From a virus (Duplodnaviria; Caudoviricetes): 64,000 nt of DNA. The notes under the pieces are model-generated. The model had not been told where the DNA came from, did no database searches, and worked only from the letters and a program-made list of their open reading frames with translations. The stretch spans positions 1 through 64,000 of the IMG/VR virus record IMGVR_UViG_3300011724_000025, one strand, 5' to 3'. Below are positions 7,983-64,000 of this stretch, one piece after another; position 1 is the stretch's first letter, and every line of letters starts with the position of its first letter. Position numbers and translations under genes: made by a program.

Positions 7983-8032
7983 TAAAACCCTCCTTCATAT
8001 AATTTTTCCGATAAAAACCATCATTCATCTCC

Positions 8033-8476
8033 TTAATCTTGATATGCAATTGCTTCTAACTGCTCGTTGAGTTCTTCAATCTCAAACTCAAGATACTGTT
8101 TTGCCTTACCTAAATCTTCAATCGTAGATTTCAGCACATCACCTTTTAAATCTTTTTTACCGGCTCTGCTTATGTATTTTGCAACGTTACCAAGATTAAA
8201 ATTTAATCCCCATGCTTTTATAACCTTTCTGGCTTCATATGGATTATTTTTCCCTCCATAATGGGACGGGTGGTTTACCTGCTCTTTTTCTGTCAATGTT
8301 TTAATAACCTCTTTCATATACTTACTTTCCATGTTAATATTTTTATCTGGATATTCAGTGCATTCATGACCGATATTATCAATCACAAATGGCTCTTTAA
8401 CACCTGTACAAACATACTCTTCTGGTTTAGATTTAAAGAATCCTTTCTTGCAAGCGTCACAATCCACACAATTCAC
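8033..8476 (-). CDS. DUF3310-family protein with Cys-rich N terminus
   Basis: VNHPSHY, GNVAKYISRAGKK, EDLGKAKQYL. Confidence 0.85.
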   Translation of the reverse strand: MNCVDCDACKKGFFKSKPEEYVCTGVKEPFVIDNIGHECTEYPDKNINMESKYMKEVIKTLTEKEQVNHPSHYGGKNNPYEARKVIKAWGLNFNLGNVAKYISRAGKKDLKGDVLKSTIEDLGKAKQYLEFEIEELNEQLEAIAYQD

Positions 8477-9058
8477 TTACTCGCCTCCCAATACTAATTC
8501 TCCAAACATCGGTAAAGTTTCAACCCATTTACAGAACTCTCGCCACTCAGGAAGCCTGTGATTTCTTCTCTGAATTAAAATTGTTTTTAGTTGCCGATAA
8601 TTTGTTGTGAACCCGGCAGTCAGCTCAAAACCAGACGGTATATTGTATAAAATTTTCAAATATAAGTCCTTTGCAAATTCAGTGCTCTTGTCCTCCAATC
8701 CGTTATAAACATCAATCATTTCTTGAACTACATTAATAATTCGCTCATCCACATATTCATTGCACTGCTCTTTCAGATTAAATTTTGTAATTCTGTGCAT
8801 GGTGGACTGACTCGAAATAAAATCAATGAAGTGATATCTCTGCATTTCCGTAAGGAATTTATTGCTCACCCGTAAATCAAACTGAACAACTATCCCATTT
8901 AGGAAATTATCGTGGGCGGCTCCAATATTACTTGCTCCAAGTTTCTTAACAGTATTCGTCACTTCTTTTGTACAGTCTTCTAAGTTTACTGCCATAGGAA
9001 ACTTACTAACCCTGATAGCATTATCAAGTCCATACACATTCACATTGCTAATTTGCAT
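8477..9058 (-). CDS. divergent ThyX-like FAD-dependent thymidylate synthase
   Basis: EMQRYH, SSQSTMH, TNYRQLKTI..QRRNHRLPEWREFC resemble phage ThyX-like proteins. Confidence 0.65.
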   Translation of the reverse strand: MQISNVNVYGLDNAIRVSKFPMAVNLEDCTKEVTNTVKKLGASNIGAAHDNFLNGIVVQFDLRVSNKFLTEMQRYHFIDFISSQSTMHRITKFNLKEQCNEYVDERIINVVQEMIDVYNGLEDKSTEFAKDLYLKILYNIPSGFELTAGFTTNYRQLKTILIQRRNHRLPEWREFCKWVETLPMFGELVLGGE

Positions 9059-9069
9059 TCACTATCCTC

Positions 9070-9270: not shown

Positions 9271-9343
9271 CGCTTTTGCCTCCTATATTTAATTGTAAAA
9301 TTGTTGGGATTTTTGTTGATGTGTTTGGTTTAAAACAATGCTT

Positions 9344-10489
9344 TCATTGCCCCACTAATAAATTCGCTCTATGTTCCATGACCTTGCTTTGTAGAAGTGA
9401 TGGCTGTACCGGAAGATCAATTGAGAACTTTTCCAACAAATCCTCACCATATCCTAGTAATTTCAAACACTCTAAAGCTTGACCTCTATCAAAATATTCA
9501 AGTTCTTCTTGGATATCAAATCTACCATGTCGTATTAAAGCAGAATCAATCCTGTCTTTATAATTTGTTGTTGCAACATAGATAGTATTCTCAGTAGAAT
9601 AGATTCCGTCTAAGAGTTGAAATATCGCATTTTGATTTACATCTTTCTGCTTTTTCTGTGCAACATCAAGTTCCATACCTTCTATTTCTTCTCTACTTTT
9701 AAAGAACATATCAAAATCTTCTATCAATACAATAATTGTGCCATCATATTTCTTTCTCATTTTTAGAATTCCATTTATCGAATTCATGATATTTTGAGGA
9801 TCAATAGTCAAAATAGGTGCATTAGAAAATTTTGTGCTTATAGCTTTTGCAATAGTTGACTTACCGGTTCCTGGCTTACCATAAAGAAGAACACCGATCT
9901 TGTGAACTAGCTGATGATTCTTATACCAGCCTTTGCTTGATTCCCAATTGTCAAGACCATTGATTATTCTCTTTTTTACAGATGAATCCAATACTATATT
10001 GTCAAAAGAGTGTGGAATAATATCACAACTCATTTCTTGTTCATTTAAGTATTGAACTCTGATGTGATTATCGTCTGTAATCTTTAAAGCGTTGTTTAAG
10101 AATCGTTCTCTTATTGCGTACCTTTCCTTTCCATAGAAAATGATTTTTATTCTATTTTCAGGATAGTACGACTTATCTTTCATATTTTTATAGGTTTCTA
10201 CTTTAATGAAGTTATTCTTTTTGACTTTGATGAAATATGCTGTATCGCCGCACAATTCATAATAATCTTTGTTGGTTGTAGGGATACGGTTTTTAGTGTA
10301 TGTATCAGGATTCAGTTTGTAAATTAATTTGTTAATATTATTATACGATCTGTCCCATTCTCCAATATCAATCACCGAACTTTTAAGCCCCTTGATTATC
10401 TTTGCAACACCTGTTATAGCTGACACGCCAACAGAAATCGCTATTCCAGACAATATTTGTTTGACGTATGAATTTTCTTTATCTGCCAT
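9344..10489 (-). CDS. BCS1-like AAA+ ATPase with N-terminal TM segment
   Basis: GKPGTGKS Walker A, IEDFD Walker B, TTNY..RIDSALIRHGRFD. Confidence 0.85.
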   Translation of the reverse strand: MADKENSYVKQILSGIAISVGVSAITGVAKIIKGLKSSVIDIGEWDRSYNNINKLIYKLNPDTYTKNRIPTTNKDYYELCGDTAYFIKVKKNNFIKVETYKNMKDKSYYPENRIKIIFYGKERYAIRERFLNNALKITDDNHIRVQYLNEQEMSCDIIPHSFDNIVLDSSVKKRIINGLDNWESSKGWYKNHQLVHKIGVLLYGKPGTGKSTIAKAISTKFSNAPILTIDPQNIMNSINGILKMRKKYDGTIIVLIEDFDMFFKSREEIEGMELDVAQKKQKDVNQNAIFQLLDGIYSTENTIYVATTNYKDRIDSALIRHGRFDIQEELEYFDRGQALECLKLLGYGEDLLEKFSIDLPVQPSLLQSKVMEHRANLLVGQ

Positions 10490-10967: not shown

Positions 10968-10976
10968 AATGTCACC

Positions 10977-11222: not shown

Positions 11223-11564
11223 ATTTTCTCTCTTTCCGCAATTGAAAGTCCAGTTTCATGTTATTTATTATTTTTAGGAGGATACTTATGATTCCCACAA
11301 TAACATCTTTCTTCTTTTACTAATCCACAATCAGGACAAAATATTTCGTCATATACTCTTCCTTCATAATCATCAGAAGTTTGATTACCAGTCCAATATG
11401 CATTTTCATGATCGCATTTATGTTTTAGTAACTCTAATTCACTTTCTAGTCTGACAAATTCATGATGAGAATCTTTTATTTTATTCATTTCTTTTAAAAT
11501 TGATTCTCTAGATTCTTTTATACTCATAATACCTACCTCCTTTATATGAATATATCTATGTTTA

Positions 11565-11945: not shown

Positions 11946-12048
11946 CTCTCCATTATGCTGAGTCGTATATCTCTTTTATAACCCTTCAAAATGTTTTATG
12001 GATTTTTCTAAATAAATCATTTAGTTCCTCTCCTTTAAAATCCCAATT

Positions 12049-12579
12049 CTATTTATAGTTACCAATACAGTTTTGAGCGAATCCAATGATGTCATATAAA
12101 TATGGCTGGCTTCTGTTTAATACACATTTTGCTATTCTGCATTCTGAGGCGAAATCCTCACGTTCAATTTCCTCTATCCATTCGTTCCAGTTTTTATTTA
12201 TCATATCGCAGAAGATGTTTCCACTTCCTCTTAAGTAACATCTGCCAACCCATTCCGCTTTCATTTCTTTTTTATCTGGATACACCATAACATAATTTAT
12301 TCCTGCTTTTTCCAATGCGGATCTAACTTCTTTATGACTACTAACAAAAATCAAATCCGTTTTGCCAATATTTTCTTTAATATGTTTTATATAGTTTGTA
12401 GGGAATTCTGGATTTCTATATTTCTCGATCTTGTCTGACTCAGCAGGATTGTAGTCGTAGCACCAACTAAATTTGCTACTATCACTATCCAGTACAGAGA
12501 ACCCATCTTTCTTTAATGTATTATAGGCATATGTTTTACCGCAAGCAGGAAATGCACTAATTACAACTGTCTTGTTCAT
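12049..12579 (-). CDS. P-loop kinase-like phage protein
   Basis: SAFPACGKT, DSDSSKF. Confidence 0.65.
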   Translation of the reverse strand: MNKTVVISAFPACGKTYAYNTLKKDGFSVLDSDSSKFSWCYDYNPAESDKIEKYRNPEFPTNYIKHIKENIGKTDLIFVSSHKEVRSALEKAGINYVMVYPDKKEMKAEWVGRCYLRGSGNIFCDMINKNWNEWIEEIEREDFASECRIAKCVLNRSQPYLYDIIGFAQNCIGNYK

Positions 12580-12790: not shown

Positions 12791-12839
12791 TTACTTATCC
12801 TCCTACTTTACAAACGAAACTTCCGTTTCAACCTTTGCT

Positions 12840-13103: not shown

Positions 13104-15321
13104 ATTATCTATCTCCTTTCATACCATCTAAATTTAATGACTTCTCGCAAAACAGTTTAATATCATCAATGCTCTTACCTTCGTTACACATATTCAATAC
13201 GGCTCCTAAAATACCGGTAGCCCATGCTCTCATACCGGCTAATCTAACTTTATTCACAGTATCTTCTGCTGTTTTCTGAAATAACTTTTCCGAATTTTTA
13301 TTACTCATATTATTTTCTCCTTTTGAAATGTAGATTTTAATGTTACTTATCTTTGTCTTTTTTATGAGTTTCTTTATATGCGTCGCATATCATTTCAACA
13401 CATGCACCTGTAACTAGAATTGCAATTATGATAATCCAACCTAAATTACTCATTTATTTACCCCTGTTTTCATTTATTTCCTCCGATCAAACTTAAAGTC
13501 TAGTCGCAATTAAAATTCCAACAGCAATCACTATCTGAAACTTCCTCGATTCTAAGATTTGTATGACCTTCAATAATTCTTTTGTCGTTTTCAGTTGGAT
13601 TATTTATCATTCTTTCTAATGCTACATTCGCATCTTCCAACGATTTACCGCATACACAAACCAAACAATCATCAAATCTTTCCGTATCACCTTTTATAAT
13701 ATATTCTATTTTGGCTCACCTCTTTTCATATTGAAAGTATTATTTTATTTCTATTTCTCCAAATTTTAATCCTTCACATATGGCTATCCTGATTCCCTGA
13801 TATGTCGTAAACCCATTTGCGTATATCGTATAGCCATTTTTAAATTCAGATTCAATAACATCATTTGTTTCCTTATTCATTATTAAATACGAATTTTCAC
13901 GGTAATATGGTGTTAATTTAAAATTAGAAATCAAATGGTTTAAAACATTAATATCTATACTATTTTTCACAATATTAATCATATTAGTATTCTCCTATAT
14001 TCTGAATGAATCGTTACTTTCATCTGCTTAAATGTCCCTTAATTTCTTCAATTTTCTTAATCACTGGTTTATATTTTTTATCTCCACGCCTAATATCAAC
14101 CACCCTTTGTAATTCAGATTCAAGAGTACTAATTTCTTGATCCGTATACCATGTGTCGCTGTACTGAACAATATTACCAACAGTACCATCACTACAAATG
14201 GCGAATGTGTAATAGTCAACTCTATACATATTTAAACTCCTTTTCTTAATGAATCCTCTCTTTTATCTTATAAATATCAGTTTTGCTGTCCAAACAGTTC
14301 TATACTCTTCTGATGCAAAAACTCAATATCTTCTGCCCCAAGGCAAGTAATTTCTGTTTGCCAATGGCCGTATGTAGCGGAATAAGCATCTTCACCCATT
14401 GGTTCTAAGGTCGGCTCATCAGTTCTGTGAAACATCATTAAGCTGATATCAACCGTCTTTGTCTCCTTGTTGAAGATCATGCTCAACTCAACTCCACCGT
14501 CTTTATGCTTGTAACAAACGAGTCTTTCTGTTTCGCTATATTTATCTTTCTCTGTCATGATTAATTCCTCCTCAAAATCCTAATTTTTACAGATTGTTCA
14601 CGCTTTTATTGTAAATGCATATATTATTGTTACGAACGATTATCAAACGTAGGGGGAAGCTCCTTTCACAGTAAGGCTACCTCCTTATTACACTTCGCCC
14701 TGCTCCCTGATATGAAGTTCTGTAGCACTTACTGATCATGATCGTGTTGTTTACTCCAGGGGGGCGAAAATCTATGATTTTCACCCCCTTAAGTTAAATA
14801 CTAATTCACCTGCTGTTTTATAAATCTCCGAATCAGCGCATAGTCCTTATCCATAACAGATAAATGTTCCTTCGCTGCTAGCTTGCAGTATATAATCACA
14901 GTATCCTTATCCTTTCTTGCACGCAAAACCTCATAGGGATTTTTACTTGTTGCAAGGATCATATATCCTTGCTTTTCCAGCCAGATTTCTAATTCTTTAA
15001 GTTTACTCTTGTGCAGCAACGCCCTTGTAGCCATACCTCAATACCTCCAATCCTAATTTTCCCAACGAATCAGAAACGCATTTCCATCCCTCTGGTTTGA
15101 ATGATTCTCAACCACATACCCCAACCGTCTAAGTGCAGATAGAGCCTGCGGGTGCAAATATCTATCGCACCAGCATTTTGTTTCACCTGCATTTACCGCA
15201 TTTCTGATACAATTTTCTGCGATTCTCAATTCTTCCTTGGTATCATCACTTATAGATTTAACCGCTGCTTCTCTTGCTTCTCTTGCTGTCAACATATATT
15301 CTCCCTCCTCAAAATCCTAAT

Positions 15322-16206: not shown

Positions 16207-16394
16207 TTATTTTTCTTTCCTCCTGTAAGTATCAGTTTACGGTATCTACTGATTGAATCTCTCCAACCGTCTCAATCGCACCCAAAGTATTATTAACTCC
16301 CATATCATAAGCTTTCCGCTCGGTTTTGGTCATTCCTTTGGTGTCTGAATCAATAGTCACGTTTATGAGGTTCCTAACGTCATTCAAGATTTCT

Positions 16395-16781: not shown

Positions 16782-17136
16782 TATCTTCCTTTCTCCCGGT
16801 ACTACAGGATATACTAATTTTATCCGCTAACTCCAATGAGAACACAACCCTAGATGACAAGCATAATCAATTACGTTCGTCACAGATATTTCTAAGTTCC
16901 ATGCTGCCCTCTGAGGATTAAATGATTTATGGTCTGGACTATCAAAACTATGTATTACAGATAAAAACCTATCTTTTCCTCCACAAGCTTTCTCAATTTC
17001 TGTTATATACTCGTCACCCCATAAATCCCGTTTGTCTCTCACAATACCCATATCAAGAACTCCTTAACTCCATCTTGCATCATATTCATATATCATTCCT
17101 TTTTTAAACTTTGGTTTACCAATTGAAATCGTCATT

Positions 17137-18195
17137 TCATCCTACTGCTTTTACTCTCATTTCTCCTACACTACAGTAAGGTTCTTCTTCAGTATTCATC
17201 AATTCAACGTTTATGTATCTCAATCCATAACCATCATTTTTGTTGAGTTCTTCGCAAGCTACAGCATGAGTGCAGCTACCCGCAGTGATATCAATGGTCA
17301 TTCCGTTAATTGGAGTAAGTAATTTAATCAGCCATTTAATTAATTCAACAGGTTTTGGTGTTACATGTGGATTACGCTCTCCATTAGGGAGTTTTCTTTC
17401 TGAAGGAGATATCTTTGGTTCATATTTGATAACAGTAAAATATTTGCTTCCATCTTTTATCTGATCATCTAACAATTCCGCGGCAAACTCATCCACAACA
17501 ATGTTTGACGGAAACCTTCCCAACTCATTAGGAGGCATGGCCTTATCTTCTGCATACTTACCGTAGATACGGTCATCTCTATCTGAATAATTAGTGGTTG
17601 GTGTTTTAGATGCTTTGGCATTTAGCATATCAACATCTTCCTTAGATATAGGAACTCTGCAAGAGTCAATATTCATTCCACCGCAGTCGTACTTCTCAAT
17701 ATTTTGGACATATGTACCTTCTAATGGCTTCTGGAATATTGTGATAGGCTCATGTGCGGGCTTCAGGCCAGAAGTCTTCCAGCCACTCCATTTCTTTGCT
17801 AATTCTACTATATTAGCTTTATCAAAGAGCTTACCTATATCTTGATTCTTGGGCATTCCAGTAAGATAGATCCAATCAATCTCTTCGACAATCTTAAATC
17901 CTGAATCTTCAAAGGCACACTTCATTCTATGATTTGTCTTTGGGTGTCCAAATATCGCTACATATCCTCCAGGTTTCATCACTTTAAGTAGCTTTACTGC
18001 TCTCTCTTTATTCCATTGATAGAAGTTTCCAGTGTTGTCCCACTTTTTACCCATAAAGGATAAATCATATGGAAAATCAGAGATGCAACTATCAACCGAG
18101 TTGATTTTTAATGTATCTAATACATCTAAGTTATTACCATTAATAATGTTTCCATTATTCGTATGTAAAATTGTCTCTATAATTTTTACCTCCAT
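17137..18195 (-). CDS. orphan DNA amino-methyltransferase (beta class)
   Basis: Motif IV variant SDFPY, LKPAHEPI, HVTPKPVEL, motif I-like DITAGS. Confidence 0.82.
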   Translation of the reverse strand: MEVKIIETILHTNNGNIINGNNLDVLDTLKINSVDSCISDFPYDLSFMGKKWDNTGNFYQWNKERAVKLLKVMKPGGYVAIFGHPKTNHRMKCAFEDSGFKIVEEIDWIYLTGMPKNQDIGKLFDKANIVELAKKWSGWKTSGLKPAHEPITIFQKPLEGTYVQNIEKYDCGGMNIDSCRVPISKEDVDMLNAKASKTPTTNYSDRDDRIYGKYAEDKAMPPNELGRFPSNIVVDEFAAELLDDQIKDGSKYFTVIKYEPKISPSERKLPNGERNPHVTPKPVELIKWLIKLLTPINGMTIDITAGSCTHAVACEELNKNDGYGLRYINVELMNTEEEPYCSVGEMRVKAVG

Positions 18196-18796: not shown

Positions 18797-20069
18797 TCAA
18801 TTCCTCCTCGTCCTACAATCTGGAAGAATAATACTCTTCCCATTTTTCGTCCCAATATGGTTCAACAACATTTTCATAATATCCTTTGCAACACGTTATG
18901 TAATTTGATTCTTCATCTTTATACATAGTTCTCATATGGTATCTCTTCGGATATTTGAATAATCTAAATTTACAGTCCCCACAACCGTCACAATATCCTA
19001 GAGTTCTTTTGATAAAATTAACGATATTTTTCTTTATTTTAAATCCTCCATTTCTCAGCAAACTTTAATTTTATGTACGCTAATTGCAGGTGATGTAATC
19101 ACCAGATAAAAGCGGAGTTTCATTTCTATTTATATTTGATTTTTACGTGTAGTGTCTGTATTAACAAAATAACAATCTGCCAAATCGTTATTTTGATAAA
19201 TATCATCTATCCCATCTATCTTGGAAAGGTTCAATTTTTAACTCCATAAAGGCAGTTGTAAACTCAGGAATATTCTTTCCTTTTATTACCTCAATTTTCT
19301 TATTACCTGTAGGGAATTTTCTTGTCACTAAATATCGTTTATTATCCTCCAATAACTCAGATGTGAAACTTCGACTAGAACAATAAGTAGAGATCCATTC
19401 TTTTTCAGTAAAGTCAATCACTACCCCATTATCAAGGTTCAATCTTTGCTTGTCTCTTTCAGCCACCTCTATTTGATAGAGTAACTTCTTATAACGACTC
19501 GTAAAGAACCACTTCAAACTTGTCATTAATTTCCTCCTCTCATTAACTTAGATACCAGTGAACCGAAGAACCAACCATATCCACCACAACCGATTAAGTA
19601 CATTACAATTGCACCTGGCTCACACTTGCCAATTCCGTTTGTTCCAAGACCGATTATTATAAAAAAGTACAATCCTAAGAATAACAGTGTCAATAGTGAC
19701 ATTTTAAGTATTCGCTTCATTTTTCTCCTTTCGTGAAACTCGTATTTTATCTATACAATCTCATATTCTATGTCCAGTTCTCCTGATACAACTTTTAACA
19801 ACTTCACACCTATTCCACAGTTTCCATTACAGTCTTTTGGGTCGATATAAGTTATTTTGACTATAGCACTTGTTTCTTCTCCTATAAATTTTATACTATC
19901 GCCTACGGAGAGTGTATCGGCGAGACAATGCCCTAATATAGCATAATTACTCTCGCCCGAGCAGATTCTATTAAGTAGACTGGTATTGTAGAAAAAAGTA
20001 GCTCTTTTTACTTTCATTTGCTTTCCTCCCACAAAGTAAGTATTTCTTTGTCGTTTACTAATTCTCCAT

Positions 20070-22007: not shown

Positions 22008-22496
22008 TCAAATCCTCCTTAATTTTTAATATACTCAATATCGCTTTGGCTTCCCAAAATAATCGGTTCCTTGTCTGGTTGGAGAAATTTCATTTTCCAA
22101 TAAGCGGCTCTGCGATTTTCTAATTCCAACTGTTTCTGTAAAACGTCATTTTTATTTCGTAAGTCGAAATTTGCATTAACATATGTGCTAATATGAGATC
22201 TAATATTTTCAGTAACCTCTTTATGTTTCTTTTTGCTTATAAAACCAAGCAAATCATCACCTCCGTTTTGACATAAAATACTCGTTTCATTTGCTTTTCT
22301 TATATTTCTATCATAAAATTTTCTCTTACATCTTTTTCTTCATCGGTCATCCAACGGACATTAAACCCACTATTTTCAAGGTTTTCAAAGTCCTCAATAC
22401 TGTTAAATATTGGATTTAGAGCAATTTCCTTAATTTCACTACTTTTTATCATTTTTACCTCATTTCCACACCAATGAAACCACTGATTCATTGGTA

Positions 22497-34214: not shown

Positions 34215-34222
34215 ATTTTCAC

Positions 34223-38861: not shown

Positions 38862-38890
38862 TTGAAACTATTTATTATTCAATGTATAAT
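38862..38890 (+). promoter_or_regulatory. sigma-A promoter of the inverted moron
   Basis: TTGAAA-17 bp-TATAAT. Confidence 0.7.
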
Positions 38891-38920
38891 TACTTATATG
38901 TACAAGAAAGGAGATATGTT

Positions 38921-39646: not shown

Positions 39647-40163
39647 TTCCATAATGCTTGAAAACTACGTGTTAATCAAAGTAATCAATTGAAAGACGTG
39701 TTTCAATTCTCTCCACCTACAGTAATTCTATATCTTTTCTAACACACATGCGTAATCAGCTCTGATCACTACGTCATCAATTTTTTGATTAATACCTTTT
39801 ACTATGTTCCACCGATAAGGACTGATATCTTTATTAAGAAATTCTGCTAATTCATCAATTTTTTTTTGTTGTTTGTCTGCATCTGATGAGTGTTTCATTT
39901 TATTAATATCGAAAACTGCTTGTTTAGCAAGTTTGTCCGATATAAGATATTGCTCTTTAGCTTTAACGTACTCATAAATATATTTAGAAATATTTTTCAC
40001 ATTATCCTGTAATACCCTTTCTCTACTTAAGCTGTATGGGTAAAGTACGACTATTCTTTGGTCATAATGTTCTATGCCTTCTATGTACGTATAGCATAAA
40101 TCCTGAATCAAATTGATTTTCACCTCCTTTCATAAGGACTTGAAAGTCGCATTTTCTTGGTAT

Positions 40164-43075: not shown

Positions 43076-44136
43076 TATATATAATATATATAAACATAGT
43101 TCACCTCCGATTCTAATGGTGAGCGAGGAGGTGCCACCCTTATTTTGAACGGTGCCTTAAAGTGGATTTTGATTTTTCATTGTAATATTCGTTTGACGAT
43201 TGCCAAAAAACCTTTATTTTATCAGAACTTCCGAGTTTGTCGTTACTATTCCCATACCTCTTTCTTCTGTAGACATTCTTTATAAAATTCAGGGAAATTA
43301 GCACTACCTAAATCGCTGTTCTCCGATATCTGGGCATTGCACAGCCATATGTCTAATAGGTATGGCTTCAAATTCAATCTTTATTTTTACTATTTTCTTT
43401 TCTGGCTCTACATTATTACCGTAATATCCCATTATTTTCTCCTCTCTCTTCAATAAAAGGTTCAATCTATGTACTTAACTTTTTCCTTCTCACAAAACGG
43501 AGATATGTCATAATCAATCAAATTTTTAACAATTTTATAAAGCCCAGTACCTGCTCCGCCATTATTAATATGAGTTAAGTCCATTGCGATTTCTCCATCT
43601 TTAGCTATTATATCGGCGAAGTAGAAATCGTCAGAAACCCTATAAACAGTATCGTGCCATATGGTTTCCGCATTTTGTATTGATGAACACTTTAATCCTC
43701 TTTTGTGGATATAATTTATAATTTCTATCATATTATATTTTAGTACTTTATTTAATAGCTCCGTTTCTTTATGTATTTCTTCTATCAATCCCTTTTTTAC
43801 TACTGCCAACTCGTACTCGCACATCTTTACTTTTTCTTCCTGTTTTAATTTAGATTTTTGTAGTTCTCTAATGATAGAATTCATAATTCCTATAACTCTC
43901 CTTTTTTTATATTAATTTTCAAAATAAAATTCCGTTTTTATTTAGCAGCCATCAAAAGAATATCTCTAAAACTCAGATCATTGTTATTTGTTCTTTTACC
44001 ATCAATCCTTACATGACATTTTGTACATTCCGTATATCTGTTGTGTTGCCCATTTTCGAAATGGGTTCCAGTAATCATAATATGTCCGCATCTATCGCAA
44101 TTCTTCATGAGTAACCTCCTTTGATCACTCGGCAAT

Positions 44137-44165
44137 TTGACAGTGTTTTTTCAACATGCTATAAT
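44137..44165 (+). promoter_or_regulatory. consensus sigma-A promoter, antisense to the operon
   Basis: TTGACA-17 bp-(TG n)TATAAT. Confidence 0.85.
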
Positions 44166-47256: not shown

Positions 47257-47299
47257 TTTGCCACCGCCTTATTTATACTAATGAGTCAACAGTGTTAAA

Positions 47300-47369
47300 C
47301 AACCGATGTGCGACTTGAACACACCCCAAGATAATCAAAATACCCTGTGCTACCTTACACCAATCAGTT
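47300..47369 (-). tRNA. phage tRNA-Gln(UUG)-like gene, degenerate
   Basis: Acceptor AACTGAT/ATCGGTT, D arm GTGT-AAGGTA-GCAC, anticodon arm GGGTA-TTTTGAT-TATCT, T arm GTGTG-TTCAAGT-CGCAC; no CCA. Confidence 0.7.
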
Positions 47370-47433
47370 ACAATATTTAATTCTCCATTCATTTATGGGA
47401 GACTATAGCAGAAACGCCGATACATGAAATTGC

Positions 47434-48386: not shown

Positions 48387-48479
48387 ATTATATACTACGC
48401 TTTATATAAAGTCAAGTATATATAGCAAATATATTTTATATTTATATTTCTTTCTATATATGCTATACTATATATAAAG
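48387..48479. promoter_or_regulatory. divergent repressor/lytic promoter region with operators
   Basis: Minus-strand TTGACT (48410-48415)-17 bp-TATAAT (48387-48392); palindromes CTTTATATAAAG (48400-48411) and CTATATATAAAG (48468-48479). Confidence 0.75.
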
Positions 48480-48483
48480 TGAG

Positions 48484-51342: not shown

Positions 51343-52028
51343 ATTGACTACCTCCTATAATTCATTGCCTTATAAGCACTATAAAAGGCACTGGATTATC
51401 ATTCTCCAATGCCCTATGTAGTACTTACAAATTAATTCTAATTAATATTTGTACAGTTCTAATCTTTCTTTGCACTTAATTATTTCTTCTTCACTGAATA
51501 ATGGCTGATATTTCGACATGACCACATAATATTCAACAGTCAGATTTAATTTGCAGATTGCAGCCAATTTTAGAAATGTATCGGTTGGTTCATTCATAAT
51601 CAGCCTTTTAACTACTTCAACAGAATCACCATCAGTCAACATTTGTATGAACCTCGATGGATTATGGCTGGCATTTTTTATTTCTATACAAAGCCGTCTC
51701 ATATCTTCAGTAAACTGCTTTTTTAGTTCCTCCATCAAATCCCCCTCCCTTTGAAAACCTAGTTTCATTCATTCAATATTGATTTTAATGAATTTAGATT
51801 TAATCTTCCCAATTTTATACATCTTCTTCAGAACCCATATCTCTTTCATCAGCCTCATGTGTTCTAATCATTTCATTAAAATCTTCTTCAACTTCTTCGT
51901 ATGATGAACCTTCATTGGTTTCTGTTTCCCAGAAATCTTATTTCATCTTTTCTAACATTATAATTTTATCTTGTTCCTTTTCAAAACTATTCACTTGGTT
52001 TCCTCCTTAAATCTCAAATTTCAATCGC

Positions 52029-52883: not shown

Positions 52884-53408
52884 TCATTTCAAGCTTTCTA
52901 ACATGTTCTTTACTCTATCAATTTCTTCTTTACTATGTGGCGTTCCTCCACTATTAAATTCAACATACCACTGTAATACTTCTTTTTTAGTTTTGAGATT
53001 ATTTACATTAAACAACAAATCAACATCAATTGATAATTTATCTTCAAAGTCATGTAAATAATTTCCAAATACTTTTATTTCATTATTCATAAACTTTATA
53101 ACAGCAGTGAGTCTTTGTAGTCCATCAACACATACAAAATCATCATACTCGTATATTCCATCGCCTCGCCAACTTGGTTTATTAAAATAAATAACCCTAG
53201 CTGATTTTCCACCTCTTAGCAAATATTCAATATAGGCAATTTGTTGGTTCTCTGTCCAAACATGTCCTCTTTGGAAATCTGGATCTAATTGCAAGCCATA
53301 ATATTCATCTTCTTGCCATTCTTTTATTCGTTCACTAACATAATATAATGGCATATTCACCTGATAACTTCCTACACTGGTAAGTTGCGGAATATCTTTA
53401 AATTTCAT
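52884..53408 (-). CDS. stand-alone DUF262 (ParB-like) protein
   Basis: LDPDFQRGHVW, VDGLQRLTA, FNSGGT. Confidence 0.8.
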   Translation of the reverse strand: MKFKDIPQLTSVGSYQVNMPLYYVSERIKEWQEDEYYGLQLDPDFQRGHVWTENQQIAYIEYLLRGGKSARVIYFNKPSWRGDGIYEYDDFVCVDGLQRLTAVIKFMNNEIKVFGNYLHDFEDKLSIDVDLLFNVNNLKTKKEVLQWYVEFNSGGTPHSKEEIDRVKNMLESLK

Positions 53409-55135
53409 AAATAGCTCTCCTTTACAAATAAAACAATCCTTTCAACTAAGCTACATTACTACTCTCTTTTCTAAAACATCTCATTCCAGTAGGAGTCTGC
53501 TCCAAACCTAGACTTCTTTTTAGCTGCTCCCAGTCGTTAGACGACATTACATGAGTCCCATGTGCTGCTTCGATAACCACCATATACTCATTGCCACAAC
53601 CAAACATACCAATCAATTTATATCCATCTAAGCCATTCATATAATCTTCCTCCATTATACTATTTTCATAATACAAAAGCCACCAGATTTTCATAATCCG
53701 ATGGCCGTCAGCAATGTATTCTATTCATTCATTTGTAATGCCCGTTGTTGATTCTTTTCGTCATCTCTTTCTTTGAGTATTTACTAGAATCTCTCATGAT
53801 CCCATCTAAGTCTCTTGTATTCTCAGCCGGCGTGTTTGGAGTCACGCTTTCTTTTGCCCATAAAAACAGCCCCACAAGTAATCCGATAAATGCTAATGCT
53901 CCCATGTTATTATCTCCTTCTTAATTGGATAATTTGCTCTTATCTCTTCTCTCGATTCATTTAATCGCCATTTCATGCCATCAAAATAGTTCTTTCATCA
54001 GTAAAATATCAGTTTATCCGTGCAATGATTTTGCCATGAAATCATATAATTTATCATGCGCTTCTTGGTTTTTGAAGATTTTGGTTTTTTGATATTTTCC
54101 TATAAGCAAAGCCCCACACCTTTTACACCTTTGGTCGATAATCTGCATAACAGAATCTGTTCCAAGTGGAATGTAACTAGGTTCACAATCTACAATTTCA
54201 CCACCACAATCATGCTTTTCATATTCCATAATTCATCTATCCTCCTATCTTCCGATACTACGGCAAATACTATTTTCTCAAATCATATAAACGGTTTTCT
54301 TTCTCCTGTTGGGTAATATCAAGAATCATACTCTCCATTTCTGCAACTTCTTCACTATTACTGCATTCAGAAAAACAGTTCATAATTATTTCTTGTATTT
54401 TAAGTTCACTTTTCATTGCGCTACTCCTTTAAATTGTGGTTCTATCGGTCATCTGTTTACTCTATATCCGAATTAACTAGACAATCCATCTGCAACGCCA
54501 TCTGCTTTTGATTCTCCATCATTATCTTAGCGTACACCTCCGCTACCTCCTGGCATGTAGTACAATCTGCATATACATCTTGAATTCTAGTTATTAAATC
54601 TTCCATCTTATTATTCTCCTTTTTAATCAAATCTTGTTTTCATTCTTCAAATAGACACTTGTGTCGCATTGCTAAATCACCATTGTCTAAAATTATAGTG
54701 TAATATTTTTGTATTTCAGCGCAAACTTCATATAATCTGCTTTTAGTTACCCCTACCACTGACAACTTTGCTCTAACTTGTTTCTTCATTTTATTAAACT
54801 CCTTCTTTAAATATATTAAATTCTTTACTAATAATCGTTCAGCCCTTCTCCAAAATCTAGAGTTTTCAGAGCAGCTTCCGCATCTTCACCGTTCTCATGT
54901 ACATACCTGCTAAAATCCGAAAAGAAACAATACACATTTCTACATGGCTGATCAACATCGAATATAACAATTTCTTTGTCCCAATCAATATATGATACGA
55001 CAACTTTATATACTCCGTCATATGTTCGTGTAGAAACGGCGATAATTCCATATAATTCTTGATCGACAACTATATTAGTTTCTTTATTAAAAAACGCTCT
55101 CATTCTTTATCCTTTCTTCCATTTAAATCACGCTT

Positions 55136-55702: not shown

Positions 55703-57200
55703 AATATTATTTTCCCCTTTCAATTCAGCAATTCAATGCTTACTCATTTTCATATTTGTAATAACGTCCATACAGTTTATATTCTGGCTTATAAATACTT
55801 CCTACGTTTTCACTAACTAGCATAGAATCTTCATACCCAAGATTCTTCATAGTCCGAGAATGAATACTCTTTTCTTCCTCTGAATCATAATAATATTCCT
55901 CTATAATCGTTCTCTTTTTAAATACCATACTTTCTTCCTCTCTTTCAATATAATATTCTCCATTGAAAGCACACATTCATGTACATTGCTCTATAAACTC
56001 ATCTGTACACATTGCACCTTCCCACCAGCACACAACCGCTGGCCTATCCTCTGATCCATTTAAATAGCCCCTTAACTGCCTTTCAAAGTATCCAAGCATA
56101 TAATCATCAAACACAGTCTTCAGCCTGTCAAAGTCCTTGCACTGTTCTAATTCTCTATATCCCATACAAAACACCTCCTATATTAAATCTACCGCTAATT
56201 ATGTGCGGTTAGTGACCTAAGCCAAATCAACCACTAATTCTCCGGTGGTAAGCAGCAATCACTTTTAGACTTCCGGGAATGCCTTGTTTACTTTTGCAGC
56301 ACGATCTATCCTTCCGGATCACCGACAAGGCTATGTATTAAGATATAAGGCAATGTAAAGCGAAAATCTCCGTGAAATTATCAAATGTAGATATGTAAAT
56401 ACCATTTGCATACATATCAATTTTCCCTTCCTTATTTTTCATGTAATGAAATTTTATATCGCTATTCATGTTTTAATCCTCCGGTCTGTGCAAATAAAAC
56501 TGCGCTTACAATTATCAGCAATGCTGCCAGCGTCCAGTTTCCGTCCTGGTCATTCAGTTTAAAGAACACAAAAATAGAAAGCACAGGCAAAATGCTTCCT
56601 AAAAGTTTGTAATACTTATTTAGTTGTGCTAATATCATGAAATCCTCCCTTAAAATGTTCTTTTCATCGTAATAATATATCTCTAATTTCTGTTGATCTG
56701 ACTTCAGGAATCATTCTAGCAAGCCAGTCACATCTTTCTGCTATATTTTCAATCTTTTCCGACTCTTCTAAAATGTTATCAAGCATGTCACGGGCAAACG
56801 CTGTTTCAAATGCCGTTGGAAATTCGCTAATAATATAATTCCATAGTTGGCTCATAGCCCCTCCTTTTCTAACGGTATCATCTTTCCGATAACTACTTTA
56901 TTTATCCTCAAAACGTTCCCACATATCGGTTTGACAGCCTTCACCACCCAACATACAATTATCCATAACGTGGTGTAAACACAACTCACAAGGACTATCT
57001 TCTGGATTATTTAACAAAAATTCGGCCTCACGATCAAGATTTAAAACTTCATTTGCAATTAAATTTGCAGTTGTCCTATCACAGCCAATCATCGGCATAA
57101 TTCTATTTTCCATAATTACCATTACATTATTTTTAGCATTTTTTAATTCTTCCCTTGTTAATGTCATTTTAAATTCCTCCTTAAAACCTGTCTTTTATTC

Positions 57201-57872: not shown

Positions 57873-58231
57873 GACAATTCTCCTTTTATATTTTTATACT
57901 TGAATTCTATTTTTCATCTTGAATATTTATCTATCATGGCACCCATTACCTGACGAGCTTCCTTGTAATTTAATAATACTTGTGGTTTCCCTTTAGCTTC
58001 AAATTCATACTGTAGAGGTAATCCATTCTTTGTATCTGGGTTGTAACACGTACCATAAAATATATAAGATTCTGGTTTATCATGTAACCAGATTGTAAAT
58101 TCGCAGCCTATATATTTTTCAAACCATTTATTTGACATCTTATCACCATCCTCTTATATACATAGATAAATTTACAATTTTATTTGCTTAATATTTCTAT
58201 AAAACTTCATTTTAAATCTAAAGATTCGTAT

Positions 58232-58324: not shown

Positions 58325-58783
58325 CTATTTGATGTCTAAATACTCGATTGCTTTATCTGTAAATAATACTCCATCTAAATGATCAGTTTCATGACATAGA
58401 CACTTTGCAAGTTCATCAAAAGCCTCAATTGTAATGGCTTCTCCATTTTCATTAAGTGCCTTAACCAATACTCTTTTGGGTCTCCGCACTCTACCCCATA
58501 TACCAGGACAACTTAAGCATCCCTCAATAACCAGTTGTTCTCCTTCAGATTCAACAATTTGGGGATTAACTAACTTTAATAAGCCTTGACCCATATCAAT
58601 TACAACTAAACGGCGTAATATTCCGACTTGACATGCGGCTAATCCACCTCCATTTTCTGTGCTATACATTGTTTCTGCCATATCGCCAAGAATTTCTCTG
58701 ATACGATCATCAACCATATCAACAGGTTTGCTTACTTTACGTAAAACATGATCATCAAACAGTCGAATTTCTCTTAGTGCCAT
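58325..58783 (-). CDS. def: peptide deformylase
   Basis: GGGLAACQ, EGCLS, HETDH; SD GGAGG before ATG 58783. Confidence 0.93.
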   Translation of the reverse strand: MALREIRLFDDHVLRKVSKPVDMVDDRIREILGDMAETMYSTENGGGLAACQVGILRRLVVIDMGQGLLKLVNPQIVESEGEQLVIEGCLSCPGIWGRVRRPKRVLVKALNENGEAITIEAFDELAKCLCHETDHLDGVLFTDKAIEYLDIK

Positions 58784-59105: not shown

Positions 59106-60303
59106 TATTTTGAAAAATATAATTTGATCTATAAATCTAACTCCACCTCGTTTGGATTGTCTTCACAGTCCGACGGCAAATAACTAACTCCACCAACATA
59201 ATTTTTACTGTTCATTTTCGCCTAGTGAAACCGTATCAGTTACAAGCCCCTTTGCCTTCGCAGCATTCACGATAAGGCTTATTAAACCATTACTGATAAT
59301 TTTCAGTTCTTTATTTGTAAACTTCTCCATTACAATCTCCTTCCTGATTTTGAGCATAATAAAAGCAACCGGGTATATATTCTCCGATTGCTCACCATTA
59401 AACGTGCATTTTATCTTAATATCCAACAGGATAACTTTTCCTTCCCCCTTGAAATAAGTATCCATACTTCCGTTGATCCTCTAACCATTCCTCTTTTGTT
59501 GCCATCTTGTCAATCATAAATTCAACATCTCTCCCATTTGGCAAGTCATCAAAGAATCTTACAGCAAGTTCCAACGCTTCTTTTTCGTCATACCCCTTTT
59601 TCTGTATTAACTTTCCTGCTTTTAAAACACTATTATAGGTTTTTCGTTTCATACTCCCTCCATTCCTTACCAAAAGAAAGGCACAATTTATTCTATAATT
59701 TCAAAGTTGCTTTCTTTAATTTTATTGCTACATACCATTATTCTGCCTTTTTTATTAACCAACCAATCAGTAGGTGATATTACCGTTTTTTCTTCAGGAA
59801 ACCTTAATCCATACACATGTATATTGGGTATAATATGTCTTATACTTAAATTCCGATATTTTCTAATGATATTTATTATCTTAGAATAATTATCACCAGT
59901 ATATTGCATCATTTCACATTCGTAATCTGCAATAATATTTCTTGCTTTCACAACAGTCGACCTCTTCTTTCTCTTGAAATGTGAATTGCCACTGGTTATT
60001 TAAACACTGGAAAACTATCTTCATTTTCCATTGCAAAGTAATTATGGGCCTCATAATCATCAATTTCTATTACAGAGCACACACATTCATATCCAAGTTC
60101 TTGCATATCCTCCTTACAAAACTCTTCAGCTTCTTTAATAGAAGGCTCTCTAATTCCAATAATGCAAATAGAATAAGTATCGCATGGCGTATCAGGGTAT
60201 TTATCGAAATGTTCCTGATTGGCCTTTTCTTCATGACCAAATTCAATTTCAAAATATCTCGTTTCCATATTTCGCACCTCCATTTCCAAAGGAAACTTAC
60301 TTT

Positions 60304-61950
60304 TTATGCTGACTTATCTTCCAACAAGTTCATACTATTGTTTCCATCGAATAAATAATACTTAGTATCACTCATGACCTTTGAATACTCCTTCTCACCC
60401 TCAAATTCGTTTACTACAGCTTTTTCTTCTGCCGTCATATCTTTATATTGCTTTTTGCCATAAGAAGGTGGAAGCCAGCCTTTTTTCTGTGATCCGAATA
60501 TGTTGAACTTCTTCAGTAGCTCTGGATTAGTAAATGTAATATGACAGGTTCCTTTCTTATAAAAGGTAATATTAAAATATTTTAAAACGATGTTCTTCGT
60601 CTCTCCGTACTCTTCTGCAAATTTTAAGGTTTCCTCTAAATCAATTGCATCCGTCAAGCCTCCGTCAAGATAGTTAAAACATTTCTCAATGTCTTGTAGT
60701 TTCCCTTTAACCTTATAATCTGTAGGGTAATATCTATTCCAAAAAGAATCATACCCAGCTAATGGTATAATTACTTTTTCATTTATAAACCAACTTTTAT
60801 TGGTCTTCCACCCATTATAATAATGGATATTGCTTGATGTGTCTTTGTCCCAATAATGTTTATGGCTCAATTCATCAAATAAGGATATAATAGTTTCTTC
60901 TACTCCAGAAACTACTTTCTTTTGCATCTCAATTTTTAATTCGTAAATATTATATAAAGAAAAATCATAATCTTTTAAGTTCTCAAGTCTATTATAAAAA
61001 TCCTGTCTTAAGTTCTCGGTAAGCTGTCCGATAAATTTTTCATTATGAAAGAGTGCGTTCCAATATTTTCCACGCACTTCTCTTATGAACCCATTCACAG
61101 ATAATTTATTACTGTATTTATCTTTATTTGTAGATAAATCTAAGCTCAAAATGCAGCCACCCTTCTGAACTGTTTCGCCTGTCTCTTCATCTTTTCCGAA
61201 AGAAGTCATAATCAAAGGATACATGGCATTATATTCCTTGATTAATTTAATTCCCGCTTCTACCTCTAAATTGTATTGACTTACGATAGACTTAAACAAA
61301 TCGTTTTCTACTAGATATGCGCTTTCAGTCTGCCCATATTCCTGCTGTTCTTTTGCTTTTTTGAGCCCATCAAAGATAAATGATTGTCTTTCAACTTCCG
61401 GAAGTTGTACCTTTATTAATGCAATTTCAACATCTGTCTTTCGTTCTGCGTCCGCAAAAGCATTTCTTATATATTCAATGTCTGCATGATATTCTTCTAG
61501 CAGCCTAACAAGCGTTATTCTGTCATTGCTGCACTGATTTCTAAGCGTTTCGGCATTCAGCAAACAAACAATGGCACCGCCGTTTCTCTTCTGCATTTCT
61601 AAAGCCTTTAATAAGTGTTTACAGCCATTAGAAAAAGGAGGATTCATAATAATAAGGTCGTACTCTTTCATTGTGTCGTATGTCAAGAAATCATTGTGAA
61701 CTAGCCGATATCCTTTACCTTTAAGTATGTGTCGCAAATTTTCATCTTGTTCTATGCAATCAATATCAAAAGAAAACTTTGACCAACGATCAGACATGCG
61801 GCCCTCTTTCTCCTTAATTTTTTCTATTATGTCACCCTTCCCGGCCTCTGGCTCTAAAATACTTTTGATCCTGTTAAAGTCCAAAGAAAAGAGCATCTTT
61901 TCAATAAGATGCCCTGGCGTTGGGTAAAAATCTGCATTTGATGTAAACAT
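60304..61950 (-). CDS. DNA adenine methyltransferase-like protein with DUF4942-like C terminus
   Basis: FYPTP, LEPEAGKG, IMNPPF; GWKTN...K.I.P, YF....YKKGT.HI.F. Confidence 0.8.
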   Translation of the reverse strand: MFTSNADFYPTPGHLIEKMLFSLDFNRIKSILEPEAGKGDIIEKIKEKEGRMSDRWSKFSFDIDCIEQDENLRHILKGKGYRLVHNDFLTYDTMKEYDLIIMNPPFSNGCKHLLKALEMQKRNGGAIVCLLNAETLRNQCSNDRITLVRLLEEYHADIEYIRNAFADAERKTDVEIALIKVQLPEVERQSFIFDGLKKAKEQQEYGQTESAYLVENDLFKSIVSQYNLEVEAGIKLIKEYNAMYPLIMTSFGKDEETGETVQKGGCILSLDLSTNKDKYSNKLSVNGFIREVRGKYWNALFHNEKFIGQLTENLRQDFYNRLENLKDYDFSLYNIYELKIEMQKKVVSGVEETIISLFDELSHKHYWDKDTSSNIHYYNGWKTNKSWFINEKVIIPLAGYDSFWNRYYPTDYKVKGKLQDIEKCFNYLDGGLTDAIDLEETLKFAEEYGETKNIVLKYFNITFYKKGTCHITFTNPELLKKFNIFGSQKKGWLPPSYGKKQYKDMTAEEKAVVNEFEGEKEYSKVMSDTKYYLFDGNNSMNLLEDKSA

Positions 61951-61962
61951 TGTTTTTCTCTC

Positions 61963-63216
61963 CTATACAATTAGTTTTTCAGTTGGATCATATTTAAAAA
62001 TGAAACCGTCCTTTAAACTGCTATGATATCCTTGTATTTTTGCAAGTTCTCGTTTGACCTCTGCAAATTCCTGTTTTGATAATTCATTTTTTACTTTTAC
62101 AATATAAATAACTTTTTTGTTATCAAACGGGCTTTTATCCTCCATGATATCATACTCAATAATTGGTTTAACCTTTTCTTTAGGCTCTTCTGGTGGAGTT
62201 TCTGTTCTTATATATTCTTCTGCTTCTGGTTTACTCGATAAATCAGAGTTTAATAATTCTATTGGATTTGATTTGAATATAAAGCCATGTTTGAAGCGAG
62301 AATAGTAACCGCCGATTGACTTCATGTACTGATTTACTTTTATATACTCTTCACGGTCTAACTTTTCTACAACTTTTACAACCCATATTTTAGAATTGTC
62401 TCTTGTGTCGGTGTCTTCCGCAATATCGTAAGTACAGTTATTATCAATGCTTTCTATTTCCTTACAAGCTTCTGTTTTTGTCTGACTAGATGCATTATTG
62501 ATTCTTGCCGTTTTTTCCACTACTTTGAAATCACTTGATACTTTACATCCAAAATAATAGAAATCAACGTGAAAATAATCGGTCATAGCGTCGCAATCGT
62601 TGTAATTGTAGCTATTTACTTCTCTATTTACATCCTCTATGACCGCCGATGTTCCATCATTATACACTTTGTAAAAATCAGATTTGTCCCAAGCTTCAAG
62701 AATGGCTGTTTTTAATTCATGGTCAAACCATGAATCTTTATTGAATAAATGGTTTGCTCTAAGTTGCCTATGAATATTGTTAATATCATCTTTTGTCAAC
62801 TCGTCATAATTCTTATATAATCCGTGAGGTGCTTCTTTTAATTCGATATGAATTTCTGAACACATAGAAGCGTGTGAATATCTTATTGAAAATTTATAAG
62901 TCGGATATATTTCTTTTACATAAGTTCTAATTAATGAGGCAACTTCTTTTGTAGAACGGCTCCAATCGTGTTTTGAACCTTTCCAACCATACGCGGTATA
63001 AAATTCGCTTCTAGTGCTGTCTGCTGTTTCTTTAGTGGGTTCCGGTGCTGTTACGTTGTATTTGTACTTCCAGATAGGAAAAAGCTGATCATATTCGCCG
63101 TTAATCGCTTTCATGACTTCTGGATCGCCGCCAGCGTCTGGGTGATTCTTTCTTGCCAATGCCTTAAACTGATTCTTTAAATCCTCAAATGATTTTATAT
63201 CTTTAAAATGCTTCAT
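61963..63216 (-). CDS. J-domain protein with polyvalent-protein-like middle domain and duplicated C-terminal domain
   Basis: LARKNHPDAGG (HPD); YPTYKFSIR...SYNYNDCDAMTDYFHVDFY; two copies of YDI.ED.....I..VKV...L...E...V......I.GY.S..K.GFIFK..P. Confidence 0.75.
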   Translation of the reverse strand: MKHFKDIKSFEDLKNQFKALARKNHPDAGGDPEVMKAINGEYDQLFPIWKYKYNVTAPEPTKETADSTRSEFYTAYGWKGSKHDWSRSTKEVASLIRTYVKEIYPTYKFSIRYSHASMCSEIHIELKEAPHGLYKNYDELTKDDINNIHRQLRANHLFNKDSWFDHELKTAILEAWDKSDFYKVYNDGTSAVIEDVNREVNSYNYNDCDAMTDYFHVDFYYFGCKVSSDFKVVEKTARINNASSQTKTEACKEIESIDNNCTYDIAEDTDTRDNSKIWVVKVVEKLDREEYIKVNQYMKSIGGYYSRFKHGFIFKSNPIELLNSDLSSKPEAEEYIRTETPPEEPKEKVKPIIEYDIMEDKSPFDNKKVIYIVKVKNELSKQEFAEVKRELAKIQGYHSSLKDGFIFKYDPTEKLIV

Positions 63217-64000
63217 AGTTCCACCTTTTACCTTTCATTATGTAAGTTCATTTATTCCCACTATAAAAGCCACCGGAACGCTGTCCGATGACTTCTGACT
63301 AGAAATAATATTATTTATCCCATACAATAGAATCTATCTCGCACATGTCGTTAGCATAACCCACATATTTATTGCCAGGATAACCAACGCCCTTTCCCTC
63401 AAATATCGGGAAACGTTTAAAATCCGCAGACGCTCCGCATATGAACATATTTCTTTTAGCTAAATACTCAACAAGATTTTTATGATTTTCATTACATGTT
63501 ATAATCTTTGTTCTTAGCTCCTCTCTCATTTCTCAACCTCCAAATAAAAGAATAGTTTCAAAGACTTATCATATATTGATCGTCATTCTGTTTTACTGTA
63601 AAGCTAAAGCCTTGAAAATAATCTGCAAGTGATTTATCATCAATAGTCACTTTCCCGTCAAAGCGCAAACAATCAATTAAAAACCCCATGTTCTTATAAG
63701 TATCGTAAGACAATTTTCTTTTTTCTAACTCTGAATCGGAATCTATTTTTTGATAATCATGCAACATATTATTAAATATCTCCGCTGTTTTGTCTGTATG
63801 TTTAAACATTTCTCTCATTTTTATCCACTTTCTACCTCGCATTTAACCAAGGATTTATTTGAAATAAGAATTTTATTCAGCCATCGCATTTATATATTCG
63901 CTATCATTCCATGTAAAAATACAATTTTTGTATACATCTTCCATATCAATTTTCATAGAATCGAAATTCACATACCGAATGCATTTTTTAATTCCCACAG

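Follow-up and report, generated by a model that had tools for sequence, protein, structure and literature searches.

What are the short palindromes that lie between the small accessory genes of a large temperate phage, and what have they to do with the movement of those genes? The question is raised by IMG/VR provirus record IMGVR_UViG_3300011724_000025, 126.6 kb long, of which the first 64,000 nt (its first half, here called the window) were analyzed. A first-pass annotation of the window had noticed about 40 copies of a 16-bp palindrome, TRAAA-N6-TTTYA, at gene junctions, and had proposed an integron-like system of gene cassettes. Our data show that the sites mark crossover points, but not by an integron-like mechanism. 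The copies qualify as crossover marks because relatives keep the order of the sites while the surrounding genes are swapped. We read the sites as fixed, individually marked joints at which gene slots are exchanged in register, with short-homology recombination as the most likely route, and our confidence in this reading stands at about half.

The palindrome and its place among genes

The window contained 24 exact matches to TRAAA-N6-TTTYA, compared to 2.72 expected from dinucleotide-preserving shuffles (standard deviation 1.5, maximum 7). When the half-sites were kept and the gap between them was varied from k = 0 to k = 14, the 24 matches were found at k = 6, and 0-5 at any other gap. Because the matches peak only at k = 6, the excess is not due to AT richness or stop-codon context. 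At k = 6 there were 65 one-mismatch copies, where other spacings gave about 36-60; some 20 of the 65 lay in gene junctions. Of the 24 perfect copies, 21 were intergenic, and the three inside genes (22139, 29599, and 46861) are probably chance matches. In the whole record, 24 of 28 perfect copies were located in the leftward early/accessory arm (0.3-66 kb). Two of the four copies outside this arm were inspected (94816 and 79378), and both have a Shine-Dalgarno (SD) sequence or SD-like run as their centre.

The conserved information comprised 5 bp per arm plus a weak A/T preference at the next outward position. Counting the A or T that flanks each arm, the element extends over about 18 bp, (A)TRAAA-N6-TTTYA(W). 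The layout is 5-6-5, a symmetric site with inverted arms and a 6-bp centre, and with two half-sites of 5-6 bp spaced by one helical turn it looks like the target of a putative dimeric DNA-binding protein; the half-site form is what suggests protein binding. The R/Y pair varied independently between the arms (GC 8, GU 12, AU 6, AC 6), and among the site copies there were no compensated arm mismatches and no pairing covariation. Predicted RNA folds of the copies ranged from 0 to -4.7 kcal/mol, with several copies unfolded. No -35/-10 promoter element was found at a fixed distance from the sites, and no Rfam family matched them. The missing covariation, the weak folds, and the lack of a fixed-distance -35/-10 disfavor an RNA hairpin, a folded site resembling the attC of integrons, and a promoter; the attC-like fold is rejected on the arms' lack of pairing covariation.

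In 12 window sites the first three bases are the stop codon of the upstream gene (9331, 12036, 14007, 17124, 43925, 54627, 55964, 56651, 57901, 60291, 63545, and 63860). The end of the site was usually 12-29 nt ahead of the next start codon, abutting the SD. Junctions in the small-gene arrays typically measured 24-55 nt, and about half of them carried a site. Internal junctions of the nucleotide-metabolism block, the replication block, and the transporter operon measured 0-25 nt, and in the window none of the junctions inside these three had a site. The structural blocks likewise had no site at their internal junctions. Two pairs of sites stand in tandem ('empty' pairs), 58167/58200 and 39659/39690.

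These results bear on several claims of the first-pass annotation. The site set is real, with 24 exact copies against 2.72 after shuffling and with 21 perfect and about 20 one-mismatch copies at junctions; its enrichment held against the shuffled null, the spacing scan controls for AT and stop-codon context, and the overlap with stop codons was borne out by the 12 sites above. The position between the end of one gene and the SD of the next applied to most copies, but what follows sites 39659 and 39690 is the 3' end of a + strand gene and not an SD. The reported absence of sites from gene blocks was correct for the internal junctions of the nucleotide-metabolism and replication blocks, while two one-mismatch sites lie at block edges, 22475 at that of the replication block and 44138 at that of the switch block. 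The units had been described as promoterless; some site-delimited units have a promoter or terminator of their own, so this is not true of all. One such unit is the following gene, which looks like a self-expressed insert:

38882-39646, + strand, low-GC gene (29% GC stretch) of 254 aa, no known family, sites on both sides, sigma-A-like near-consensus promoter at 38862-38890

The window sites are listed below, with centres read on the coding strand. L numbers denote relatives and X numbers public sequencing runs, both treated in the next section.

Perfect sites:
9331-9346, centre GCATTG, contains stop of gene 9344-10489
11243-11258, centre CTGGAC
13324-13339, centre TCTACA, start at 13308 is 15 nt on
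13732-13747, centre TAATAC, upstream stop codon within centre
17124-17139, centre TGACGA, contains stop of gene 17137-18195
19107-19122, gene-free surroundings
19734-19749, start at 19720 is 13 nt on
22274-22289, precedes gene 22019-22252
34097-34112, downstream limit of the 4.7-kb transporter unit
38819-38834, upstream limit of the transporter unit, also flanks + strand gene 38882-39646
39690-39705, with 39659 brackets the 3' end of the + strand gene
41806-41821, follows gene 41823-42095
42221-42236, poorly coding surroundings
43925-43940, contains stop of gene 43938-44135
51752-51767, centre CTAGGT, also in L095
52876-52891, centre TGATTA, also in L055 and L089 with unrelated flanks
53429-53444, centre GGATTG, homology to relatives stops at site edge
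56651-56666, centre AGAACA, AGCACA in relatives, where it joins other genes
57182-57197, centre GACAGG, four different next genes in five phages
63545-63560, centre CTATTC, also in L092 with unrelated flanks
63860-63875, centre TTCTTA, also in L088 with other genes on both sides

One-mismatch sites:
8012-8027, junction
12036-12051, junction, contains upstream stop
12815-12830, junction
14007-14022, junction, contains upstream stop
14250-14265, junction
22475-22490, junction, replication block edge
34206-34221, follows gene 34223-35827
39659-39674, tandem with 39690
40141-40156, junction
42103-42118, junction
44138-44153, precedes gene 43938-44108
52008-52023, centre TTTGAG, also in L055, L088, L089, and L095
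53982-53997, centre GAACTA, also in L095
54627-54642, centre ACAAGA, five upstream and three downstream partners in relatives
55964-55979, centre GTGTGC, five downstream genes among relatives, joint of a run X2 contig at edge
57901-57916, centre AATAGA, start of the 100%-identical block of L050, L054, and L055, right arm varies with downstream gene
58167-58182, tandem with 58200, contig joints of runs X2 and X6
58200-58215, tandem with 58167, directly after a terminator
60291-60306, centre AGTAAG, also in L088 and L089 with unrelated flanks, run X3 joint at edge
61966-61981, precedes gene 60304-61950

Two other junction repeats were seen in the window, so that conserved linkers of more than one kind seem to be in use in the array:
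16226-16240, 14271-14285, and 54002-54016, repeat TAAACTGATAYTT after stop codons
15311-15330, 15040-15056, and 14790-14806, repeat AATTAGGATT(TT)GAGGAGG before start codons

Homology boundaries and the order of centres

Exact-protein look-ups yielded nine mosaic relative contigs, which share genes with window 44-66 kb and differ in gene content. Over all pairs of mosaic relatives there were 127 unique homology boundaries, and 62 of these were at site edges. Homology started at positions -5 to +2 of a site in 35 of 56 cases and ended at +13 to +18 in 27 of 71, and clustering was significant against a uniform intergenic null for both starts and ends (P<1e-9). Almost no boundary was inside a site. 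Among the remaining boundaries 13 were at two-mismatch sites and 7 within genes, and 40, about 30% of the total, were in linkers without a site, several of these at SD sequences or directly after terminators. The block that is 100% identical in L050, L054, and L055 extends exactly from site 57901 to site 57182. After the gene for a 223-aa protein, five phages keep the stop codon and the entire site (centre GACAGG) and then split into four different genes. Contigs from four public runs contained further joints at 55964, 56663, 57182, 58167, and 60292, all of them site edges; neither circles nor transcript ends were seen in these contigs, which were the only part of the runs covered.

Entire sites, centre included, remained with whichever flank was conserved, and there was no single crossover position. 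Crossovers fell on the left between arm position 2 and the centre, and on the right between the centre and arm position 4. This placement is compatible with strand exchange at the centre borders, but is not specific to it. At the cassette-distal arm we found about 3-5 'ends' and zero 'starts', and with so few boundaries there the incoming segment seldom brought its own centre. Such a pattern agrees with exchange among copies of equal centre and not with a centre-tolerant exchange.

The centres themselves were shared between otherwise unrelated junctions. Eleven of the 61 distinct centres occurred at two junctions with no common 9-mer within 150 nt on either side, whereas control 6-mers taken at nine other offsets gave 0-5 such cases (P about 4e-5); control 6-mers were used since a permutation null of shuffled centres is unsuitable when centres are shared. 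In the shared-centre pairs the variable arm positions followed the flanks and the centre stayed common, so that AATAGA is continued by ATTCA, TTTTA, or TTTCA depending on the downstream gene. All ten loci had one centre order, with intervening genes that differed in number and kind:

TATCCA, ACCGAA, TTCTTA, AGTAAG, TGCACG, GGAAAA, ATATTA, AATAGA, GACAGG (first part)
AGCACA, GTGTGC, GAGATA, ACAAGA, ..., TGATTA, TAATAG, TTTGAG (continued)

The centres were likewise colinear in three genomes of a sister clade (G001-G003), where 7 of 13 same-centre pairs had one or both flanks changed. Divergence was 2/96 in the centres versus 6-10% in the adjacent linker, although these numbers are small. At L095:1246-1262 a deletion has fused the AATAGA and AGCACA sites, and the joint has a 7-base centre, one base out of register, which looks like slippage in an A run and not like a precise exchange.

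That the sites delimit exchangeable gene units, as first proposed, is upheld by the 62 of 127 boundaries at site edges, the recurring centres with unrelated flanks, and the conserved order. The mechanism attached to that proposal fared differently. Breakpoints had been expected inside the N6 spacer of aligned relatives and were found at the edges instead, with almost none within sites. Spacer-tolerant exchange of the Tn916 or integron type would be expected to leave a new centre about half the time, and this was seldom seen. Shuffling of cassettes was contradicted by the conserved gene order.

In integrons the attC site is an imperfect inverted repeat of 57-141 bp that folds, with paired R''/L'' and L'/R' boxes. 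Each site lies at the 3' end of its cassette and has one fixed crossover point, the order of cassettes is free, and cassettes are inserted at attI, beside the integrase, and share a common promoter. An array of promoterless cassettes that a spacer-tolerant integrase excises, inserts, and shuffles would account for sites that delimit single genes and one operon, and for the 'empty' tandem pairs; as in integrons, the sites separate small gene units that are mostly co-oriented. Unlike attC, however, the element is 16 bp long, with uncompensated arms and a weak fold, and the array contains terminators and a promoter-bearing unit. The order was conserved in ten loci and in the sister clade, no fixed crossover point was found, and donor centres were almost never imported. 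A PDB sequence search with the 267-aa recombinase of the phage matched only XerA and XerH. We consider an integron-like array hardly credible.

Distribution among phages and regulatory explanations

The INPHARED collection contained no near-identical phages. DNA polymerase III alpha grouped the phage with large siphophage-like genomes. In relatives at 73-74% polymerase identity (the sister clade) the exact TRAAA-N6-TTTYA pattern was absent, and a variant, A-R-GAAA-N6-TTTC-Y-T, occupied the same position before the SD. In ten genomes the variant was present in 19-39 copies versus 1-9 for a control pattern (29-39 versus 4-9 in G001-G003, and 19-37 in seven further relatives). A clade with 57-59% polymerase identity had nothing comparable, and the candidates there for some other junction palindrome fall inside genes. 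A 20-mer containing one of the centres had no match in IMG/VR. SPbeta (NC_001884) had 36 copies at k = 6 versus 0-10 at other gaps, nearly all of the form TAAAA-N6-TTTTA, located at gene junctions and after terminators with no tie to the SD. SPbeta and the present phage have very few proteins in common, and none of these stands out.

Genes with a DUF262/GmrSD_N domain were found in 11 of 11 motif-bearing and 0 of 12 motif-less relatives (G001-G023). They are absent from SPbeta and their link to the motif is confounded by descent, and we rejected them as its partner. In the window such genes were noted at:

45100-47256, DUF262/GmrSD_N gene
52884-53408, DUF262/GmrSD_N gene

An RNA element before each SD, a hairpin or protein-binding site that controls translation or processing (for example as the target of a phage MazF-like nuclease), would suit the position of most copies directly upstream of an SD, and a MazF homologue is conserved within the motif-bearing clade. 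However, the hairpins are weak and often do not form, compensatory changes are absent, some sites have no SD behind them (39659 and 39690) or follow terminators, and the SPbeta copies are not SD-linked. This makes an RNA element very unlikely.

A second regulatory explanation sees the sites as operators. A phage repressor or insulator, acting as a dimer, would bind them in the lysogen and stop read-through at one gene after another, and the crossovers would be a by-product of the conservation of the sites. The half-site geometry resembles that of helix-turn-helix dimer targets, the half-site varies by clade as immunity specificities do, and pairing covariation is absent. The short intergenic gaps, the frequent stop-codon overlap, and the confinement to the early arm in this record of a temperate phage fit as well. 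A known parallel is provided by the stoperators of cluster A mycobacteriophages (bound by L5 gp71), asymmetric 13-bp sites oriented with transcription that also include the early-promoter operator. Dozens of stoperator copies likewise lie in the short intergenic gaps of a temperate phage, often over stop or start codons. Unlike stoperators, the present sites are symmetric, bracket an opposite-strand gene, and are absent from repressor control regions.

Both XRE-type repressor genes have inverted repeats of another kind in their control regions, probably the true operators:

Window 48389-48483, XRE control region, inverted repeats TATAGCAAATATA/TATATATGCTATA
Record 67600-67720, XRE control region, inverted repeats AAATACTACGAA/TTCGTAATATTT

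In SPbeta the master repressor MrpR (YopR) gave ten ChAP-seq peaks, all at an unrelated element, SPBRE (PMC10516654). SPBRE is a 15-bp asymmetric element at about ten promoters, and the MrpR that binds it has a tyrosine-recombinase fold (PMC10516654). From seven MrpR-bound promoters we derived a core near AATATGTATA. SPBRE is, like the palindrome, a repeated intergenic element of an SPbeta-type phage. Identity of the two was rejected, as they are unrelated in sequence, number, and placement, and SPbeta has the palindrome in addition. Further evidence against operators is that the sites bracket an opposite-strand gene and follow terminators, whatever the direction of transcription, and that regulation alone does not predict conserved, ordered centres shared between unrelated flanks. 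Overall, we regard a primarily regulatory role of the sites as unlikely.

Routes of exchange and further features of the prophage

We return to in-register exchange by short-homology recombination. On this reading the palindrome would be a fixed linker bordering the gene slots in the accessory arrays of an SPbeta-like prophage, and its two invariant half-sites would be recognized by the putative dimeric DNA-binding protein. Related phages would exchange in register at copies with equal centres, whereby a gene slot (SD, open reading frame, stop) would be replaced and the flanking sites retained; in many copies the left arm would double as the stop codon. Crossovers would be made by short-homology recombination on a common core of 12-21 bp (inner arm bases plus centre), a process in which phage nuclease genes could serve, and distinct centres would prevent recombination between different junctions of one genome. 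How recombination proceeds and what the centres do are points that we infer from these patterns. PDDEXK and ERCC4 nuclease genes are located beside the phage replication genes. The short-homology route is favored because joints also occur at SD sequences and terminators, because the L095 joint is out of register, because nuclease genes are present, and because there is a precedent in the PeSL cassettes.

PeSL (promoter-early stem-loop) cassettes of T4-type phages have near-identical copies of composite sigma-70 promoters and terminator hairpins, and the copies also recombine within one genome to give mini-circles (PMC2839356, PMC4122927). As with PeSL, a short motif recurs among the small non-essential genes of hyperplastic regions, and insertions, deletions, and replacements between relatives are bounded by it, which for PeSL has been ascribed to recombination between copies. 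The sites of the present phage occupy the same border position at indels and replacements in plastic regions. Unlike PeSL, they are 16-bp palindromes without a promoter or stable hairpin, each copy has its own centre, and the order is kept.

Several points weigh against this reading. The arm-binding protein is putative only. A shared stretch of 12-21 bp is short by the standards of homologous recombination, although the sites hold about half of the joints; the process may be an active, site-directed one. Invariant arms, a fixed 6-bp length, and centres that are unique within a genome and conserved across genomes are also expected for a recombinase that requires matching centres. The boundary events are partly non-independent, and all comparators cover accessory C, a 20-kb part of the array; exact-protein look-ups for arrays A and B returned only the same genome and no close relatives. 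Finally, 48 of 57 junctions without a site were polymorphic versus 59 of 62 with one (P = 0.07). Since site-less junctions are nearly as polymorphic, sites are not needed for plasticity.

A rival route is a dedicated tyrosine recombinase that would bind the 5-bp arms, cut at the centre borders, and complete exchange only between identical centres. The centres would then be addresses that keep the order and prevent deletions, as with heterospecific lox/FRT sites. Cassette exchange with heterospecific lox/FRT is an engineered procedure that relies on a known enzyme and on sites with 13-bp arms around an 8-bp centre. Both systems have equal inverted arms around a short centre that varies from site to site, and recombination restricted to the same centre would swap segments without changing their order, which matches the pattern reported here. 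The differences are that the arms here are 5-6 bp and that both the enzyme and the strand exchange are putative. A second comparison is with the pdif sites that flank dif modules of Acinetobacter plasmids in inverted pairs and are recombined by XerC/XerD, the modules moving between plasmids; pdif sites have 28 bp, with two different 11-bp arms and a 6-bp centre. In both cases discrete gene modules in varied contexts have recombinase-type sites with 6-bp centres at their borders, but the present element is a symmetric 16-bp site bordering colinear slots. Its arms are not known to resemble the Bacillus dif sequence.

In support of a dedicated recombinase, inverted arms around a 6-8 bp centre are a feature of tyrosine-recombinase core sites and are present here, in a 5-6-5 layout with invariant arms and constant centre length. 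Centres are unique within a genome and nevertheless conserved and ordered between genomes, the variable arm positions follow the flanks around a common centre (as in the AATAGA example), and joints are far more frequent at the sites than at SD microhomology. Three tyrosine-recombinase genes are present in the phage, and the 267-aa product of one keeps R, HxxR, H, and Y, with a short N-terminal part that would fit short arms. Against it, known sites have 9-13 conserved bp per arm, a length that the 5-6 bp found here do not reach. Internal recombinases are present in relatives with and without the motif, and those of the motif-less G004 and G005 are of like kind and position. A YomM-like recombinase did not co-occur cleanly with the motif, and no protein common with SPbeta stands out. 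One inter-site deletion joint is out of register, and up to about a third of the joints use SD or terminator sequences. We therefore treat a dedicated recombinase as a possible but doubtful explanation. The corresponding view of the whole system, a natural recombinase-mediated cassette exchange in which matching-centre joints let phages including SPbeta swap single slots with order and neighbors kept, is put forward equally tentatively.

A full-text literature search turned up the work on SPBRE and MrpR, reviews of SPbeta, and the PeSL papers, and found the palindrome described nowhere; the 1999 SPbeta genome paper was outside that search. The usual accounts of phage mosaicism invoke either rare illegitimate recombination with subsequent selection, or crossovers at regulatory motifs present in many copies. 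In the present case the joints are a defined, countable set of palindromes with individual centres whose order is kept across a broad range of large temperate Firmicute phages. This group includes the genetically tractable SPbeta, so slot-by-slot exchange of accessory genes is directly testable. If a dedicated enzyme acts, the sites would belong to a site-specific exchange system of a new kind, with possible use as a tool; otherwise they would offer a clean example of very short conserved linkers channelling recombination.

Other features of the prophage were recorded as follows. The tRNA-Gly/integrase end is probably the attachment end of the prophage.

Window 156-226, + strand, tRNA-Gly(CCC), adjoining the gene for a 418-aa tyrosine integrase (319-1575, - strand)
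Window 47299-47370, - strand, tRNA-Gln(TTG), in the 430-nt leader of the gene for a 718-aa protein, in which a sigma-70 region 2 match is joined to a DUF262/GmrSD_N domain
Record 64164-64232 (L085:164-232), - strand, match to the Twister-P5 ribozyme (41 bits against a cut-off of 37.6), just past the window, where two small array genes leave a gap of 189 nt
Record 66030-67390 (L085:2030-3390), 1.35-kb gene-free stretch between an anti-repressor gene and a divergent XRE gene, which looks richer in G+C and has no Rfam match at gathering score
Window 58325-58783, peptide deformylase gene overlapping a helix-turn-helix (HTH) gene, an arrangement also found in relatives L088-L097, where a MazE-like gene precedes the pair and the whole forms a conserved island within the plastic array

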